Virus record (IMG/VR): IMGVR_UViG_3300045988_018683
Origin: a virus
DNA: 19,157 bases
Direction: 5' to 3' (one strand)
The notes beneath the pieces were generated by a model that did not search any database, was not told the DNA's origin, and saw only the letters and a list, made by a program, of their open reading frames with translations. The position numbers and the translations under genes are program-made. Shown here in pieces: positions 2,763 through 19,157 of this stretch (within the stretch, counting starts at the first letter, position 1; the number at the start of each line of letters is the position of its first letter).

Positions 2763-2788
2763 GAGAGCACCCCTTGTTGGGTGCTCTC
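2763..2788 (+). terminator. 10-bp perfect hairpin between the SSB and TP genes (weak terminator or attenuator)
   Basis: GAGAGCACCC-cttgtt-GGGTGCTCTC followed by TCTATCT, which is only a weak U-tract. Confidence 0.35.
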
Positions 2789-2810
2789 TCTATCTGAAAG
2801 GACTGCAACC

Positions 2811-3893
2811 ATGTCACGGAAGAGGGAGAAACCAGCCCCCCGCGCAGTCGTATCACAGAACTATCGCACCCACCAAAAACCGGATATCAGCAACGTCGCC
2901 ATCAAAGCCGATAAGCAGCAGCGCAAGCAGTATCAGCAGCAGCGCAAGCACCTCAAGAAGATTCAGGCCGCGCAGGCACGCGCCGCACGCGACATCAAGC
3001 AACTCGGCGCCTACTCCCACTCAAATCTCGCCAAAACCGCGGACAAACAACTAGTCAACATCGCCAAAACCTTGGGCAAGGAGTGGGAGAAGCAGAAGAA
3101 ACAAGCCATAGCGGAAGCGAAAGCAACACCATATCACGACACCGCCGTGGAAAAGCCGACGAAAAAAGACTACATATTTGCCCAGCGCACGCCCATCACC
3201 GACGAGCAAATCGACTCGGAACCCGTGGCAAAACGCCGCAAACTCCTGCGTCAACAGCAGAGGAAAATCAATGCGGCGCGACGTAAAATCAACGAATGGA
3301 ACAAGTCTCAAGCCATGCCCGCGAAAAGCGTGTATGAGCAGCGTGTGGCCGAAATCACCGGAACCACAGGCGAGGGTTTCGGACGCAATCAGATAATCCC
3401 ATCAAAACTCACGGACTTTCTGCAAATGACCAACGTCCTATCAGACGAAGCGTTTGTGCGCAGCCAATTGGAGAGCGGACACCGTAACGAACTGCTTGAG
3501 CAGATGCACGATGCCGCAAAAATCCTCGGACTTAGGACGGAACAAAAACGTAAACCGTCCAAAAAGCGGAGAACCGGCAAACAGAGCAAAGACTTGTATA
3601 ATGAACATGATTGGCCATCGTACATGTCGCGTGGACGCTATGAGGTTTTCGAGAAAATCTTGGCCACCACGCTCGGCTCGAAACGGTTGAAACGGTTCCG
3701 CCAACTTTCAGACGCGCAAAAACGCGCGTTTATCGAACAGACGGACGCACCTCGAATCGTATTCGACTGGACGGTATATGACCCAGTACGGCACGGTTTT
3801 ACTTCGGTGTTCAGAGATAACAGCAAGGGCTATCAGCGTTCGCGACGGCAGTTTGACCGGTGGTTGGCCGAAGCGGCCGCGTTGGGAAAGTAG
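2811..3893 (+). CDS. Putative terminal protein (primer for protein-primed replication), 360 aa
   Basis: ATG 2811 follows AAAGGA. The protein is very basic (K/R/Q rich) and lies immediately upstream of the protein-primed polymerase, as phi29 gene 3 does. The genome has ITRs. No direct motif was recognised. Confidence 0.6.
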   Translation: MSRKREKPAPRAVVSQNYRTHQKPDISNVAIKADKQQRKQYQQQRKHLKKIQAAQARAARDIKQLGAYSHSNLAKTADKQLVNIAKTLGKEWEKQKKQAIAEAKATPYHDTAVEKPTKKDYIFAQRTPITDEQIDSEPVAKRRKLLRQQQRKINAARRKINEWNKSQAMPAKSVYEQRVAEITGTTGEGFGRNQIIPSKLTDFLQMTNVLSDEAFVRSQLESGHRNELLEQMHDAAKILGLRTEQKRKPSKKRRTGKQSKDLYNEHDWPSYMSRGRYEVFEKILATTLGSKRLKRFRQLSDAQKRAFIEQTDAPRIVFDWTVYDPVRHGFTSVFRDNSKGYQRSRRQFDRWLAEAAALGK

Positions 3894-3920: not shown

Positions 3921-5372
3921 ATGACCATGCAAGACAAACGAGTGGGATTATGGTGCGCGGATAACGCCATACGCTTTACGGACGGCACCGTCATGCGTGA
4001 CATTACCGCGCCCAATCGTCTGCTGGCGTCTATCATGTCGGGCGGCAAACTCACCGTCTACGTGACTAACCCCGACATACTAGACCCATTCATTGCGCAT
4101 GTCGTACATTTCCTCCCGCACGACGAACATAATGCTAACCTGAGCTGGGACTCCATTACCTCGAAAAAGGGAAAATTTTTCAGCTTCACGGTACGTATCG
4201 ACCGTGAAAATTACGTCCGTTTTTTCGACATATCGAATCTTTTACGCGAGAATTGCCGTCTGACCATGACCGACACCCAGCTACTCAGTATCTTGCGTGA
4301 GTACGATAATCGCGGATTGTGCAAAATCACCGCGGGCGGTGCGAGTATGGAGGCTTTCGCCGCTGGCGAGTGGAAATGGTATTACGACAAATTCCCACAA
4401 CTCGGAACCGAAACCAAGAAGTCATTACATGACGCCTATATCGGCGGCTTCATGCTCGCCAAGGAAGGGACTTATGGCAAGGCTATCGACGTTGACTGTA
4501 ATAGCATGTATCCAAGTATTTTGCGGGACGAGTGGCTGCCGTGGGGCGAACCGGAACCATATGAAGGCAAGTACGAGGAAGATACCGATATGCCGTTGCA
4601 TTGCGATGAAATCACGTTTCGTGCGGAACTCAAGCCGGACGGATACCCTTTTCTATTGGACAATCGTAGTATCTACGGGCTGAATCGACTTACTTCGACC
4701 CGTGGCTACATCACGCGCGTATTGACGGATATCGACCAACGATTGCTTTACGAAAACTATGACGTGAGCGTCTACAAGCATGTTAGGGGGTGGAAATTCC
4801 GCCGCTCCAAGGGGTTTTTTCGCTCGTTCGTTGACGAATGGGGAGAATTGAAACAGCGGACGACGGGCGAAAAACGGCAGATGGCGAAACTCATTATGAA
4901 CGCTCTTGTAGGCAAGATGGCGAGTCTGCCAAAAGGTGCCGTCATGCTCCCACTATCCAAAGACGGCATAACCTTGGATTGGGGTGTCGCCCAGCGTGAG
5001 GAGTCGAACCTGAAAACCGACTACTTACCAGTTCCCGTTTGGGTCAACGCCCACGCACGCCGCAGGCTTATGTACGTGTGCCATGCCAACTCTGACCGGC
5101 TCTTGTATGCGAACACGGACGGTTGTATTTTGAGCGGTTGGGGTCCTGCGAAATCATGTGACATCCACCCGACCGAACTTGGCAAATGGAAAATAGCCGC
5201 CCAATACGAAAAACTGACCATCCTTGGAATGAACCGTTATCAAGGGTGGCGGGATGACGGGGAAGTTGACGTCTGCATGGCCGGAAACATGTTATCGCAC
5301 CCTATCCCCTATGACCAATTCCAGCATGGGACGCAGGTCGTGGACGATTACGGGACAATTGTCATGTTATAA
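3921..5372 (+). CDS. Protein-primed family-B DNA polymerase (phi29 gp2-like), compact at 483 aa
   Basis: Recognisable motifs are GLCKITAGGASMEAF, AYIGGF (YxGG), motif A DVDCNSMYPS, LPWGEPEPYEGKY, motif B KLIMNALVGK, motif C YANTDG and KLGKWK. All are collinear with phi29 DNA polymerase. Confidence 0.9.
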   Translation: MTMQDKRVGLWCADNAIRFTDGTVMRDITAPNRLLASIMSGGKLTVYVTNPDILDPFIAHVVHFLPHDEHNANLSWDSITSKKGKFFSFTVRIDRENYVRFFDISNLLRENCRLTMTDTQLLSILREYDNRGLCKITAGGASMEAFAAGEWKWYYDKFPQLGTETKKSLHDAYIGGFMLAKEGTYGKAIDVDCNSMYPSILRDEWLPWGEPEPYEGKYEEDTDMPLHCDEITFRAELKPDGYPFLLDNRSIYGLNRLTSTRGYITRVLTDIDQRLLYENYDVSVYKHVRGWKFRRSKGFFRSFVDEWGELKQRTTGEKRQMAKLIMNALVGKMASLPKGAVMLPLSKDGITLDWGVAQREESNLKTDYLPVPVWVNAHARRRLMYVCHANSDRLLYANTDGCILSGWGPAKSCDIHPTELGKWKIAAQYEKLTILGMNRYQGWRDDGEVDVCMAGNMLSHPIPYDQFQHGTQVVDDYGTIVML

Positions 5373-5373
5373 T
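5365..5373 (+). promoter_or_regulatory. Extended -10 promoter TGTTATAAT overlapping the polymerase stop codon
   Basis: Perfect TGnTATAAT. The polymerase TAA stop is at 5370-5372. Confidence 0.45.
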
Positions 5374-5379
5374 GTCTAG

Positions 5380-5550
5380 TGTCTTCACGAGCGTCGATTT
5401 TCGGCTGGGGAACAACACGGGTCGGACTGCCACGGCTGAAAACGCCGCCGACCGTGAACATCACTATCGTGGCGGTAGTGCCCTACGATTTTCACTTCGC
5501 GCTCACATAGGACAGTTAGACCCCGCGCGATTGCGGGGTCATTTATTTTC
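5380..5550 (+). ncRNA. Candidate structured non-coding RNA of about 165-170 nt (possible pRNA-like RNA, or the early-operon 3' UTR)
   Basis: Bounded by the promoter at 5365-5373 and the intrinsic terminator at 5519-5550. There is no ATG between 5375 and 5557 and no SD. Hand-found helices lie at 5416-5456 (with a 7-nt bulge) and 5466-5489. Confidence 0.35.
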
Positions 5551-5552
5551 TC
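5519..5552 (+). terminator. Rho-independent terminator ending the early region
   Basis: GACCCCGC-gcgatt-GCGGGGTC followed by ATTTATTTTCT. Confidence 0.8.
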
Positions 5553-5558
5553 GCCGCA

Positions 5559-5567
5559 TGATATAAT
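5559..5567 (+). promoter_or_regulatory. Extended -10 promoter TGATATAAT, candidate late promoter
   Basis: Perfect TGnTATAAT directly after the terminator and about 37 nt upstream of the scaffold gene. Confidence 0.55.
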
Positions 5568-5603
5568 TTTGATGGAAACACTACCAACGTAAGGAGAATT
5601 TGC

Positions 5604-5885
5604 ATGGCAGACCCAGACAATGAAGGCGAGGCCACCACCACCCCACCGCCGACCGAAGAGGAACAGCAGACCCAAACCGTGGATGATGAAGTCAAGCCGA
5701 AAGAGGAACAGGAGCCGGAACCGAAACAGGAGCCGGACGTTTCCGCACGCCTTGACGCACTCGAAAAGGAATTGGCCGCGCTGAAAGCCATGCTGGACAC
5801 GCTCGGCTATAATGACCCCGCCCCGTCCGACAATGACGGCGACAACGACGAGACTCAAGAGTCCATCGAAGATTTGTTCGACTAA
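5604..5885 (+). CDS. Putative scaffolding protein (93 aa, very acidic, coiled-coil segment)
   Basis: SD AAGGAG. It lies immediately upstream of the capsid gene, as phi29 gp7 does, and is of similar size. It is D/E/P/T rich, with the helical stretch LDALEKELAALKAMLDTL. Confidence 0.5.
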   Translation: MADPDNEGEATTTPPPTEEEQQTQTVDDEVKPKEEQEPEPKQEPDVSARLDALEKELAALKAMLDTLGYNDPAPSDNDGDNDETQESIEDLFD

Positions 5886-9978: not shown

Positions 9979-9991
9979 AAGGACGGTGACT

Positions 9992-10930
9992 ATGGGCAGG
10001 CGCAATAACGCGCGCAAGGCCGCGCACTGGGACAATCAGAGCGTGCTTGGTTCCATGTGGGGCAATTTGAATCTGCCGGAAATGCGGCAATCCTTACGAA
10101 TCAACCAGTATATGAAGTTGATTGAAATGCTGGCAGTGAGTCGATTCAAATGGATTAATCTACCCCCGTATATTGACGAGCGCTATTTGGAACTGACTTT
10201 GTTTGAAAACGGTTTGGCGCTGTTTTTCCCCGACAAGCGCAAGGGGATTCACCGTTTTATGGTCACGGCGGGCAATATCGGCGGAGTCAACAATTACAAT
10301 AATCCGACGTCATTCCAGCCGGTGGCCACGAACTACTCGCACCCTCAAATCGGCTCAAAGGAATGCGTACCCATCTGGGATAATCAGCTTAGATGTACCA
10401 TGATTGACGTCATGTGGAATTACGCCACACGGCTCGCTATCGCAGACCGAGCATTGGACGTGAATCTGGACAATATCAGCGTCCCGCTGATTATCGCCAC
10501 GTCAGAAACAAACAAACTCACCGCCCAAAATTTGATGAAGGCGCGTGAAGATGGCGACCCATACATTTATACGTACGATTCGGCGGACATTACGGGCATG
10601 TTCCAGACATTCCCCAACATCACCCCGTTTCTGGCGGATAAAATCATCACCACGAAAACACAGATTTGGAACGAACTCGTAAACTATTTGGGTATCGACA
10701 ACAGCACCACGGAGAAGAAGGAAAGGTTGCTTGAGTCGGAAGTCACGGCTGGAAACAGTCGTACGAACGTGTTCCGCCTAAGCTATTTGAAGGCACGTCA
10801 ACAGGCGTGCGACACTATCAACCGGTTATGGCCGCAAATGGCCGATTCCGGCAAACCGATAAGCATTGAATGGAACGACACCACCTCTGGCGGACTCTTG
10901 GACGTGGACGGAAATAAGGAAGAGGAATAA
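9992..10930 (+). CDS. Portal / head-tail connector (upper collar) protein, phi29 gp10-like
   Basis: ATG 9992 lies 8 nt after AAGGA. FKWINLPPYIDERYLELTLFENG and TTEKKERLLESEV match gp10 [23 protein letters not shown] and LEKKERMVTDEV. At 312 aa it is close to the roughly 309 aa of gp10. Confidence 0.85.
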   Translation: MGRRNNARKAAHWDNQSVLGSMWGNLNLPEMRQSLRINQYMKLIEMLAVSRFKWINLPPYIDERYLELTLFENGLALFFPDKRKGIHRFMVTAGNIGGVNNYNNPTSFQPVATNYSHPQIGSKECVPIWDNQLRCTMIDVMWNYATRLAIADRALDVNLDNISVPLIIATSETNKLTAQNLMKAREDGDPYIYTYDSADITGMFQTFPNITPFLADKIITTKTQIWNELVNYLGIDNSTTEKKERLLESEVTAGNSRTNVFRLSYLKARQQACDTINRLWPQMADSGKPISIEWNDTTSGGLLDVDGNKEEE

Positions 10931-12385: not shown

Positions 12386-12739
12386 ATGACACAGAAAACA
12401 CCAAACTATAATTTGGAAAAGTACGACGCGACGGACGCGCCGAACCTACAAGGCCAATACAATCGCTCGATGGATATTCTTGATACGACGTTGAAAACCC
12501 AGTCGGACAAGATTGACGCCATTCCAACACCGGAAAACCTGCCGGACGGGTTGAAAGCGTTTTGCTCGGCCTTGAGTCTGACCAACTCTAACGCGGAAGC
12601 GCTCGGCACTGCGCTCAACCATTTTCTAAACCGTACTCCGGCAGCGAACGGCGGACAGTACACCGTCAAGAACCTGAACGACACCAAGGTCACCGCCGAA
12701 GGACTACCGTTCGTTTCCACCACCTCTACGGGACAGTGA
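12386..12739 (+). CDS. Tail fibre / appendage protein paralog 1 (117 aa) with the shared N-terminal motif
   Basis: SD AAGGAG. It carries the N-terminal motif NYNLEKYDATDAPNLQGQYNRSMDILD, shared with the next two ORFs. Confidence 0.65.
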   Translation: MTQKTPNYNLEKYDATDAPNLQGQYNRSMDILDTTLKTQSDKIDAIPTPENLPDGLKAFCSALSLTNSNAEALGTALNHFLNRTPAANGGQYTVKNLNDTKVTAEGLPFVSTTSTGQ

Positions 12740-12745
12740 TGCAAT

Positions 12746-12928
12746 ATGACAGACAGTCAGCAGACCACGCCCGTGAACTCCGCCGCATATGATGTGACGC
12801 GCCATTGGGGGCTACCGCTCTACAATGACGCTACACCAATGGACATGCGTGACGGCTATAATCGCGCCATGCGCATGATTGACCAGATTCTCACCCAGCT
12901 ACAGACTCAAATTCGAGAAAAGGACTGA
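12746..12928 (+). CDS. Tail fibre N-terminal-motif-only paralog 2 (60 aa)
   Basis: HWGLPLYNDATPMDMRDGYNRAMRMID followed by a short helical tail. The SD is weak, so translation is probably coupled to the upstream gene. Confidence 0.5.
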   Translation: MTDSQQTTPVNSAAYDVTRHWGLPLYNDATPMDMRDGYNRAMRMIDQILTQLQTQIREKD

Positions 12929-16226: not shown

Positions 16227-17294
16227 ATGACATTGCAGACGCTCGACGAGAGCGATTATTACGACTTGCACAATCTGTTGACGCGAAACGCCCCGTGGAA
16301 CTTCATAATCGGCGCACGCGGCCTAGGCAAGACATTTGCCGCGAAACGGTACGGTATAAAAGAGTACATCAAGCATGGCTATGAGTTCATCTATCTACGC
16401 CGTACGGACGTGGAACAGCATCGCAAGGAAACGTTTTTCAAGGATATCCAAGAGTACTTTCCATCATACGAGTTTCGAGTCAATGGAGAAAAAGGGCAAT
16501 TACATAAGACGTCATGGGATGAAAAGGACTGGCGGACATGCTGTTACTTCGTCGCCCTCTCACAGGCGGGAGGGTTGAAGTCAGTCGCCTATCCTAAAGT
16601 ACACTTGATTATCTTCGACGAGATTTTCCCCGACAACTTACGGTTCTTAAGCAATGAGGTGAACTCGTTCAGTGAATTTTATAACACGGTGGACAGGTGG
16701 CAGGACAGGACGAAAGTATTGTTTTTGTCTAACGCGGTGCAGAAAGCTAACCCGTATTTTGCAAAATACCGGCTGGACATTGGCGCACAGCAAGCCAACC
16801 AACAACAATACAAACTCTACTGTAGTGGGTTCATATGTCTCGAATTGGCTGACTATGGCGGTTTCTCGGCAAAAGTCGCCAAATCAAAGTTCGGCAGATT
16901 CTTAGAACGGTACGACGAAGACTACGCCGACTACGCAATCCGCAACAAATTCCGCGACGAGTCTGACACATTGCTGGCACCCATACCACCAGACGGCGAA
17001 CTATCCTACATCTTGGACACAACAGACTATGCGCGTTTCGGGATATGGATATCCGTGTCCGAACGTGACGGGCATGTTTCACAATATGTTTCACGACGCA
17101 TTCCAAAGGACAACAATCGCCCCGTCTATACGCTAGACCCGAACCACGTTAACGAAAAGACATGGTACGTCAAAAAGTCGGATGATATCATACGACGACT
17201 CACTACCGGCTACCGACTTGGCAAAATACGATTCGACGACTCGCAAATCAAAGCAGACTTTGGTTTAATAATAGGAGAATTGCTAGGAAAATAG
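16227..17294 (+). CDS. DNA packaging (encapsidation) ATPase, phi29 gp16-like
   Basis: SD AGGAGG. WNFIIGARGLGKTFA (Walker A), EFIYLRR, VHLIIFDE (Walker B) and LSNAVQKANPYF align with gp16 LNFVIGARGIGKSYA, QFIYVRR, IVFDE and LSNAVSVVNPYF. Confidence 0.9.
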   Translation: MTLQTLDESDYYDLHNLLTRNAPWNFIIGARGLGKTFAAKRYGIKEYIKHGYEFIYLRRTDVEQHRKETFFKDIQEYFPSYEFRVNGEKGQLHKTSWDEKDWRTCCYFVALSQAGGLKSVAYPKVHLIIFDEIFPDNLRFLSNEVNSFSEFYNTVDRWQDRTKVLFLSNAVQKANPYFAKYRLDIGAQQANQQQYKLYCSGFICLELADYGGFSAKVAKSKFGRFLERYDEDYADYAIRNKFRDESDTLLAPIPPDGELSYILDTTDYARFGIWISVSERDGHVSQYVSRRIPKDNNRPVYTLDPNHVNEKTWYVKKSDDIIRRLTTGYRLGKIRFDDSQIKADFGLIIGELLGK

Positions 17295-18759: not shown

Positions 18760-19157
18760 TTTATTTTTCCTTTCCTTGAACTTGATAACTACACTATAAC
18801 ACAAACAAAACGGCGACACGCCCGAAAACAAAACACAGCAAAACAATAAAAAACAACCACAGGACGAGCAGTAAGTTACGGTTACGTAACCGTAACCTAG
18901 CAGGACACACATTGTTGCATATACAACCATTGACACAACGTCAACATAGATTGTTGCACATACAACCATTGACACAACGTCAATAAAAAAAAACGACACG
19001 CCCGAAAATAAAAAAACTTGACATGCAAGCGTAAAAAAAATATAATAGAGACATAAACAAAACAAAACGACAACGAAGTCACAGAACAAAAAAAAATAAT
19101 ACACAAATAAAAAAAACCACAAGGGAAAATCTTCACACAAACCCACACCCCTCCCAC
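18756..19157. repeat. Right inverted terminal repeat (ITR)
   Basis: Reverse complement of 1-400 with two extra A residues next to the inner end (GGAAAAATAAAATGA versus GGAAATAAAATGA). Confidence 0.95.
19018..19046 (+). promoter_or_regulatory. Outward-facing consensus sigma70-type promoter in the right ITR
   Basis: TTGACA at 19018-19023, a 17-nt spacer, TATAAT at 19041-19046. It points toward the right genome end, about 105 nt away. Confidence 0.6.

Follow-up and report, generated by a model that had tools for sequence, protein, structure and literature searches.

What is encoded between the replication genes and the structural genes of a phi29-like podophage of Bifidobacterium? The DNA analysed here, IMG/VR virus record IMGVR_UViG_3300045988_018683 (19,157 bp; this whole stretch is referred to as the window), is the complete linear genome of such a phage, and its + strand carries every large gene in the list of open reading frames (ORFs). 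The nearest isolates are the Bifidobacterium phages BP1 and BD811P1-3, with a DNA identity of 75–80%, and in their records the gap of about 230 nt that separates the polymerase gene from the following gene is unannotated. A preliminary description, made from the letters of the window alone, had read this gap as an ORF-free promoter-to-terminator unit for a structured RNA, possibly an analogue of the packaging RNA (pRNA) of phi29. Covariation among relatives, a phi29-like architecture and the motor genes of the phage all support this core proposal. Based on structural analogy and genomic context, the locus is probably the gene for a divergent prohead or packaging RNA.

A 2024 review of phi29-like phages describes pRNA as confined, as far as is presently known, to phi29 and its relatives among the Bacillus phages (PMC11476376). 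A 2026 review states that the phi29 pRNA was once, before the work on ROOL and GOLLD, the sole natural RNA shown to homo-oligomerise beyond two protomers (PMC12990946). Searches of the available literature library returned no report of a pRNA in actinobacterial phi29-like phages, and the only earlier claim of this kind that we met for an actinobacterial phage was a feature in the database record of phage Av-1, which is considered below.

Covariation and fold of the RNA

Two sets of relatives were used to determine the structure of the RNA. The first comprised 76 distinct homologous regions, 70–91% identical, from GenBank phages and IMG/VR (77 sequences counted), and the second, independent set comprised 38 distinct sequences from metagenome contigs, collected by a pattern scan followed by a covariance-model search. 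The structure was derived from the RNAalifold consensus and from explicit counting of base pairs, both of which agreed. The alignment of the second set was fitted to the secondary structure of the model; the bulge/loop pairing described further below is not part of that model.

That the region is structured, as initially proposed, was reflected in the single sequence, which folded better than its shuffles (z = −3.15). In the alignments, standard pairs were found in 97.4% (first set) and 97.2% (second set) of the cells. Pairs changed on both sides numbered 18 in the first set, compared to 9.1 ± 1.5 after column shuffling, and 21 in the second set, compared to 11.2 ± 1.9, and in each set none of 500 shuffles reached the observed count. 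Sliding the partner columns by 1–3 positions left at most 7 both-side changes in the first set and at most 6 in the second. Even where hairpin stem and closing helix differ in sequence throughout, as in the most divergent members, the pairing is kept.

The fold of domain I is a three-way junction (coordinates in Table 1). Its two ends form a helix, one arm is bulged on the 5' strand and the other is a hairpin; these parts are named A-like, C/E-like and D-like after the helices of phi29 pRNA. Five nucleotides link the closing helix to the C-like helix and another five precede the D-like hairpin. Both-side changes were seen at five of the nine pairs of the C-like helix in the first set and at seven in the second. 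For the D-like hairpin, 100% of the cells were paired in the first set, with five of seven pairs changed on both sides, and all seven were changed in the second set. The short E-like helix showed a replacement of G5435-C5445 by A-U in one sequence (L080). In the closing helix, G5393-C5500 became A-U in nine sequences, and full compensations occurred in its segments P1a and P1b in the divergent members; the internal loop between these two segments (5386-5388/5505-5508) is of the 3 x 4 type and not a pure 3-nt bulge.

Two helices had been found by hand in the preliminary description. The first of them, H1, together with its inner stem and 7-nt bulge, corresponds to the C/E-like arm and is kept by covariation in the relatives. 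The second, H2 (5466-5473 with 5480-5489), showed 19 uncompensated breaks at one pair among the 77 sequences and no meaningful covariation. It cannot coexist with the strongly supported D-like hairpin, and H2 was rejected on these counts.

Two further observations concern the loops of this structure. A near-invariant octamer, CGAUUUUC, is present on both strands of the closing helix (5395-5402 and 5486-5493). Read antiparallel, the two copies give G-C, A-U, three U.U, U-A, C-G and G-C, that is, a conserved U-rich internal loop, which is a candidate protein-binding site. In the E-like loop, which reads UGAAAAC or UGAGAAU in the window family, A5440 goes with C5443 and G with U, although no normal pair is possible; the exceptions are GAGAAC (twice) and GAGAUU (once). 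This co-variation may be due to a tertiary or protein contact, or to an isosteric A.C/G.U pair.

Boundaries and coding potential of the unit

At the upstream end of the unit, the extended −10 element P1 was found where it had been described, as TGTTATAAT overlapping the polymerase stop codon, and its TG and TAT(A/G)AT are kept in 77 of 77 sequences of the first set. The predicted transcription start, at about 5380 and some 7 nt past P1, is the first base of the closing helix. At the downstream end, the terminator previously judged to be strong consists of a hairpin and a U-rich tail that extends to 5550, and its stem carries compensatory changes among the relatives (first set: C-G to U-A in 19 sequences, G-C to C-G in 20). 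The conserved signals thus define a promoter-to-terminator span of about 170 nt, and the terminator hairpin would make up the 3' domain of a primary transcript of this length.

Directly past the terminator a second extended −10 element, P2, was detected, which is absent from the preliminary description. Its ATGATATAAT is nearly invariant across the 77 sequences of the first set, and P2 is presumed to be, and likely is, the promoter of the late (structural) operon. The motif TGNTATAAT is present in three copies in the window (2735, 5365 and 5559), compared to 0.48 expected, all of them on the + strand and at gene boundaries. The remaining perfect extended −10 element of this kind, TGCTATAAT at 2735-2743, lies between the SSB gene and an ORF of 370 aa. 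The phage may rely on TGNTATAAT promoters at its module boundaries.

The absence of any ATG between 5375 and 5557, on which the ORF-free character of the unit had been based, is literally true, but an ATG at 5372-5374 opens an ORF of 64 codons (5372-5566). This start codon overlaps the polymerase stop (TAATG), and automatic gene callers could annotate the ORF. The region might then encode a 64-aa protein that is translationally coupled to the polymerase via TAATG, and the frame is indeed open for all 64 codons. Against this, the start codon is missing in 51 of the 77 relatives and the frame extends over 5 to 68 codons in the others, the substitutions in the helices are compensatory and not synonymous, no ribosome-binding site is present, and the ORF reads through the terminator. 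As neither start nor length of the ORF is conserved, as would be expected of a small protein gene, we consider the region to be non-coding; on these comparative data the protein-coding reading was rejected and is essentially excluded.

A conserved contact between bulge and hairpin loop

The pRNA of phi29 multimerises through intermolecular kissing (PMC4201828), and a corresponding complementarity between the bulge ACUGCC and a loop GGUAGU had been proposed in the preliminary description. The complementarity is present in the window. In the relatives, however, four independent G-to-A changes break one of its pairs, further positions break too, and GGUAGU is the 3' strand of the D-like hairpin. 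This register was rejected on the 77 sequences, and the conserved contact was found one register over. A few both-side changes were seen for 5426-5431/5474-5479 (C-G to U-A in 4, U-A to C-G in 4), which may be by-products of the hairpin covariation or hint at an alternative conformer.

The supported contact involves GCCA (5429-5432) and UGGC (5470-5473), the last four bases of the bulge and of the D-like loop, with the pairs G5429-C5473, C5430-G5472, C5431-G5471 and A5432-U5470. For G5429-C5473, the first set contained GC in 62, GU in 9 and AU in 6 sequences and the second set GC in 27, GU in 5 and AU in 6; in both sets, A-C or any other unpaired combination never occurred. On a neighbour-joining tree, G5429 changed to A at least three independent times, always with a partner that was already U. 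C5431 changed to U four times with retention of a G.U pair. The weak point of this Watson-Crick complementarity of about 4 nt is A5432-U5470.

Comparison with the phi29 packaging RNA

The consensus structure of RF00044 (Phage_pRNA) was used for comparison. This family comprises the RNAs of the Bacillus phages phi29, PZA, B103, M2/Nf, SF5 and GA-1; as a control, phi29 scored 145.4 bits at a gathering threshold of 100 bits. In both phi29 pRNA and the window RNA, the A helix is made by the two ends, the C/E bulge is on the 5' strand only (9 nt and 7 nt, respectively), the E helix has 4 bp, the D loop has 5 nt, and the linker between the D hairpin and the A helix is 0 nt. The D helix has 6 bp in phi29 pRNA and 7 bp in the window RNA. 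The E loop is a 6-nt UUGAGU in the former and has 7 nt in the window family, with UGA in both. In both RNAs the contact is made by the four bases at the 3' end of the bulge and of the D loop; the sequences differ (AACC/GGUU in phi29, GCCA/UGGC in the window), with four Watson-Crick pairs each. In size, the domain I of about 135 nt plus the terminator, together about 170 nt, compares to 120 + 54 = 174 nt in phi29. The junction linkers are different, 5 nt + 5 nt in the window RNA and 1 nt + UUU in phi29 pRNA.

The genomic settings are alike as well. Both RNAs belong to protein-primed podophages of about 19 kb with a gp10-type connector and a gp16-type ATPase, the two motor components expected of a host for a phi29-type pRNA. 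Both genes lie past the polymerase gene (in phi29 in the order terminal protein, polymerase, small ORFs, pRNA; in the window in the order SSB, 370-aa ORF, polymerase, RNA). phi29 pRNA has its own promoter and terminator, and sequence signals for both are present in the window. Differences are the host phylum, Actinomycetota compared to Bacillus for the phi29 family, and the location of the gene, which is mid-genome and co-oriented with the late genes in the window and at the genome end in phi29.

By analogy with phi29, transcription from about 7 nt past P1 to the terminator would produce an RNA of about 170 nt, the first 135 nt of which would fold as the three-way junction. Its long, loop-interrupted end helix would be the counterpart of the phi29 A helix and hold the gp16-type ATPase. 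The arm with the 7-nt bulge, the 4-bp helix and the UGA loop could be equated with the C helix, CE bulge and E hairpin, and the 7-bp hairpin with its 5-nt loop with the D hairpin. The GCCA/UGGC pairing would then form between rather than within molecules and link neighbouring RNAs into a ring. Such a ring would bind the prohead by sitting on the gp10-type connector, and would dock the ATPase, which in turn would pump the terminal-protein-capped genome into the head. The only hint for connector binding in the window phage is the basic N-terminus of the connector translation, MGRRNNARK; according to one study, the N-terminus of the phi29 connector is the part contacting pRNA (PMC1636484).

Counterpart RNAs in other actinobacterial phages

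A gap of about 160–175 nt just before the scaffold-like and capsid genes was found in Arthrobacter phage Mendel, Curtobacterium phage Pize and Glutamicibacter phage Voltaire. These gaps fold far better than their shuffles (z = −6.5, −4.5 and −4.3, respectively), and each comprises a domain closed by its own ends and, after it, a strong hairpin that leads into a U run. For searches among related phages, three covariance models were built: R1 from the window family, R2 from eight Curtobacterium-type sequences (seven phage isolates and one IMG/VR contig), and R3 from the R2 clade together with Arthrobacter and Microbacterium sequences. With default filters, R1 found no distant phages. With the filters off, its two best matches in nine small loci were the RNA regions of the Curtobacterium phages Grotle and Ayka. 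These matches were weak (12 bits, E about 0.04), full length and on the correct strand, and the alignment placed the bulge, the E hairpin and the D hairpin as expected. R2 found the RNAs of the Arthrobacter phages Tillums, Anjali and Swim (30–35 bits, E = 2e-6 to 3e-5), of Microbacterium phage PineapplePizza (29 bits) and of one IMG/VR contig (24 bits). Arthrobacter and Microbacterium matches taken together had E = 2e-6 to 5e-5, and all matches of R2 were full length and at the expected place. Neither R2 nor R3 matched the window RNA, phi29 pRNA, the IMG/VR clade L096-L104, Voltaire or Av-1. Since R3 does not reach the window RNA, phi29, Voltaire or Av-1, the actinophage RNA family is linked only partly by sequence.

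In the Curtobacterium phages (Pize, Grotle, Ayka, Reje, Thatch and others), the Arthrobacter phages (Anjali, Mendel, Tillums, Swim) and the Microbacterium phage, the RNA occupies this same position, past the replication genes and just ahead of those for scaffold and capsid, and a strong hairpin with its U run comes after it. Every aligned member has a 7-nt bulge with GC (6 nt in PineapplePizza), a helix of 3–4 bp, a UGA loop and a hairpin loop that bears GC. The E-like loop in these three groups is of the design N-UGA-NN, and the UGA motif is common to the window family, the other clades and phi29. Bulge and loop complement each other as GCCA/UGGC in the window family, GCAA/UUGC in Pize, UUGCA/UGCAA in Grotle and Ayka, CAGCU/AGCUG in Anjali and Swim, and CGC/GCG in Reje and Fairywren; the pair flanking the GC core is U-A, C-G or A-U depending on the phage, and mismatches are few. 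The clade L096-L104 follows the same design with the bulge AUCGGCU, the loop GUGAUA and the hairpin loop GCCN.

Compared to the window RNA, domain I is shorter in the Curtobacterium, Arthrobacter and Microbacterium RNAs (107–115 nt), and the A helix of those from Curtobacterium and Arthrobacter is interrupted on its 5' strand by a clean 3-nt bulge. No obvious sigma-70-type promoter is present ahead of the RNA in these three groups, nor between the hairpin and the scaffold gene. None of the fetched phage records annotates these RNAs. That the window RNA and its Curtobacterium, Arthrobacter and Microbacterium counterparts are true functional pRNAs appears likely to us, if with some reserve.

In PineapplePizza, the R2 match (4631-4734) overlaps the annotated start of gene 7 (4676-5137), the start codon of which was probably called too far upstream. 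BadAztec phages have a structured 178-nt gap at the same place; only two distinct sequences are available and the elements could not be confidently assigned. In BadAztec1 (12680-12860, minus strand) the layout is window-like, with TGCTATAGT overlapping the polymerase stop, a closing helix GUGAGCG...CGCUCAC, a hairpin loop UUAAGU and a G+C-rich hairpin before a scaffold-like gene.

The record of Actinomyces phage Av-1 (NC_009643) contains a misc_RNA feature at 16295-16402 labelled 'packaging RNA', an earlier database claim of a pRNA in an actinobacterial phi29-like phage. This segment folds no better than its shuffles (z = +0.53), is overlapped on the opposite strand by ORFs B and C, and is located close to the right end of the genome rather than at the boundary of polymerase and capsid genes. 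It was matched neither by RF00044 nor by R1 to R3. We therefore rejected it as a relative of the window RNA; it looks like a positional guess. A promoter and a terminator hairpin are present in a 141-nt gap of Av-1 (4471-4611) before ORF8 and the capsid gene, the locus where other actinophages carry the RNA, and none of the models built here matched this gap.

Packaging RNA, leader or regulatory RNA

Several observations weigh against the assignment as a packaging RNA. At the gathering threshold RF00044 had no match in the window, and relaxing the cut-off to E <= 10 produced none in 5300-5620 and none in nine related loci of actinophages. The cross-clade model R3 misses both the window RNA and phi29 pRNA. 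Common descent with phi29 pRNA is therefore not demonstrated, only the same design and context. The A-like helix of the window RNA has internal loops, one of them U-rich, where phi29 pRNA has its essential CCA 3-nt bulge. In the bulge/loop contact, A5432-U5470 becomes U.U in 6 sequences and A.C in one (7 of 77 broken), and chance alone often produces a bulge/loop complementarity as short as 3 to 4 bp. When 440 kb were scanned with a loose descriptor (C helix, bulge, E hairpin and D hairpin with four or more complementary bases), the window RNA, phi29 pRNA and Pize RNA were recovered, but so were about 35 other matches, and the scan is too unspecific to be used as a statistic. Finally, many riboswitches are likewise built as a three-way junction that has a loop contact and precedes a terminator, and the Curtobacterium and Arthrobacter phages have no room for a promoter between hairpin and scaffold gene, so that their RNA could be a leader.

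The last two points lead to a cis-acting leader or attenuator, in which the domain would bind a small ligand or a factor of phage or host origin and thereby set the read-through of the terminator hairpin into the scaffold/capsid operon, timing the switch from early to late expression. A closing helix and a three-way junction with a loop contact, then a terminator, form a common riboswitch layout, which the element resembles. Its location would also be fitting, since in all clades examined it lies exactly where the replication genes give way to the structural genes. In Pize and Mendel, only about 25 nt without a promoter separate the hairpin from the ribosome-binding site of the scaffold gene, which means that their late mRNA must cross the element, and both phages encode a small ribbon-helix-helix protein just upstream.

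In the window family the situation is different. Here the near-invariant P2 follows the terminator, making the late genes independent of read-through. The terminator stems vary freely (ACCCCGCG to GCCCUCCG) without a matching change in domain I, and no conserved anti-terminator pairing is visible. Thus, the two features that define a riboswitch or attenuator, no promoter before the gene and a terminator opposed by a conserved alternative pairing, were not found in the window family; for the Pize and Mendel clades this test is weaker, as they do lack the promoter. In addition, the closing helix, with about 30 nt per strand and conserved internal loops, fits a protein-docking arm better, and the element-by-element match to phi29 pRNA would be left unexplained. 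We therefore regard the leader or attenuator as an unlikely explanation. The two models are not exclusive, and termination could supply the short RNA while read-through supplies the late mRNA.

A second alternative accepts an independent RNA but gives it another role in trans, such as the regulation of host or phage mRNA, a decoy against host defence or a function in replication, and takes the pRNA resemblance as convergent. The RNA is conserved and structured and has promoter and terminator signals of its own, all of which would suit this explanation, as would the failure of covariance models to detect homology to phi29 pRNA. On the other hand, no Rfam family matches, and conservation is highest in helices, junctions and internal loops rather than in a single-stranded seed region. 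RNAs of the same design are moreover found at this locus in four phage groups examined here, those of Bifidobacterium, Curtobacterium, Arthrobacter and Microbacterium; the genomes searched for counterparts were all phi29-type. This recurrence favours a role in virion assembly or packaging over a host-specific target, and we consider a regulatory RNA with convergent pRNA features very unlikely. Sub-threshold Rfam matches (mir-2242, anti-hemB, Ms_IGR-7 and others) were attributed to chance or to terminator hairpins, with no credible family among them.

If the locus and its counterparts in the other actinophages encode true packaging RNAs, RNA-dependent packaging would be no peculiarity of the Bacillus relatives of phi29. 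Among phi29-like phages at large it would be widespread and perhaps ancestral, and the abundant phages of Bifidobacterium in the human gut would be among those that use it. Its conserved core would consist of the three-way junction, the bulge/loop ring contact and the UGA-containing loop. pRNA is a rare case of a natural RNA that acts as a structural motor part and forms rings, and a second, very divergent lineage would show which features are essential (junction topology, position of the ring contact, UGA loop) and would make it possible to test directly whether the RNA was already present in the ancestor of this phage group. The assignment also bears on the attachment of the small gp16-type ATPase to the portal in the other phi29-like phages, would offer new G+C-rich three-way-junction modules for RNA nanotechnology, and would supply dozens of phage genomes with a gene that their annotation now lacks. 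These phages are common in human gut metagenomes, and experiments are feasible, as the cultured isolates BD811P1-3 and BP1 exist.

Features of the genome

The coordinates of the RNA elements and of the neighbouring genes are collected in Table 1.

Table 1 Features of the window, listed by system (RNA unit, then genes and genome ends)
Feature	Position	Strand	Remarks
P1, extended −10 element TGTTATAAT	5365-5373	+	from sequence; overlaps polymerase stop codon 5370-5372
Domain I, three-way junction	5380-5514	+	about 135 nt; RNAalifold and pair counts in both sets
A-like closing helix, 5' strand	5380-5410	+	four segments split by conserved internal loops
A-like closing helix, 3' strand	5481-5514	+	abuts D-like hairpin (0-nt junction)
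Closing-helix segment P1a	5380-5385 with 5509-5514		
Closing-helix segment P1b	5389-5394 with 5499-5504		
Closing-helix segment P1c	5401-5403 with 5486-5488		
Closing-helix segment P1d	5408-5410 with 5481-5483		
C-like helix (H1 of the preliminary description)	5416-5425 with 5448-5456	+	9 bp; G5421 unpaired
Bulge ACUGCCA	5426-5432	+	7 nt, 5' strand only
E-like hairpin	5433-5447	+	4-bp CGGC/GCCG (5433-5436 with 5444-5447), 7-nt loop UGAAAAC (5437-5443)
D-like hairpin	5462-5480	+	7 bp (5462-5468 with 5474-5480), 5-nt loop GUGGC (5469-5473)
Intrinsic terminator	5519-5550	+	9-bp G+C-rich hairpin 5519-5540, then U-rich tail AUUUAUUUUC
P2, extended −10 element TGATATAAT	5559-5567	+	directly past terminator
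SSB gene		+	upstream of 370-aa ORF
370-aa ORF	2781-3893	+	occupies terminal-protein slot of related phages
Protein-primed family B DNA polymerase gene	3921-5372	+	PF03175, E = 3e-27; phrog_1907
Gene for 93-aa acidic protein	5604-5885	+	first gene 3' of the RNA unit
Capsid protein gene		+	Phi29_MCP match
Tail knob gene		+	gp9-like
gp10-type connector (portal) gene	9986-10930	+	PF05352, E = 1.5e-39
Lower collar protein gene		+	
Tail fibre gene		+	GDPD domain
Endolysin gene		+	
gp16-type packaging ATPase gene	16227-17294	+	PF05894, E = 4e-45
Inverted terminal repeats	1-397 and 18761-19157		397 bp

In profile searches of the window proteins, neither the 370-aa ORF nor the 93-aa protein matched a family, and a match to PF25622 was obtained with E = 2e-57. 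The 93-aa protein is probably the scaffolding protein, and the counterpart of its gene is annotated as such in phage Ayka. The polymerase is short (483 aa), and its match to PF03175 covers residues 136-388 only, corresponding to profile positions 176-437. Its N-terminal exonuclease portion has either diverged strongly or been reduced.

At 397 bp, the terminal repeats greatly exceed the 6-bp repeat of phi29 in length. Each of them holds a perfect, inward-directed TTGACA-17-TATAAT promoter, and a 40-bp internal repeat is found within them at 175-253. Near-full-length relatives of the window phage are present in human gut assemblies (contigs L168, L129 and L183). The contig names give coverages of about 3187x (L168), 474x (L129) and 306x (L183), from which it follows that relatives of this phage can be very abundant in some samples.

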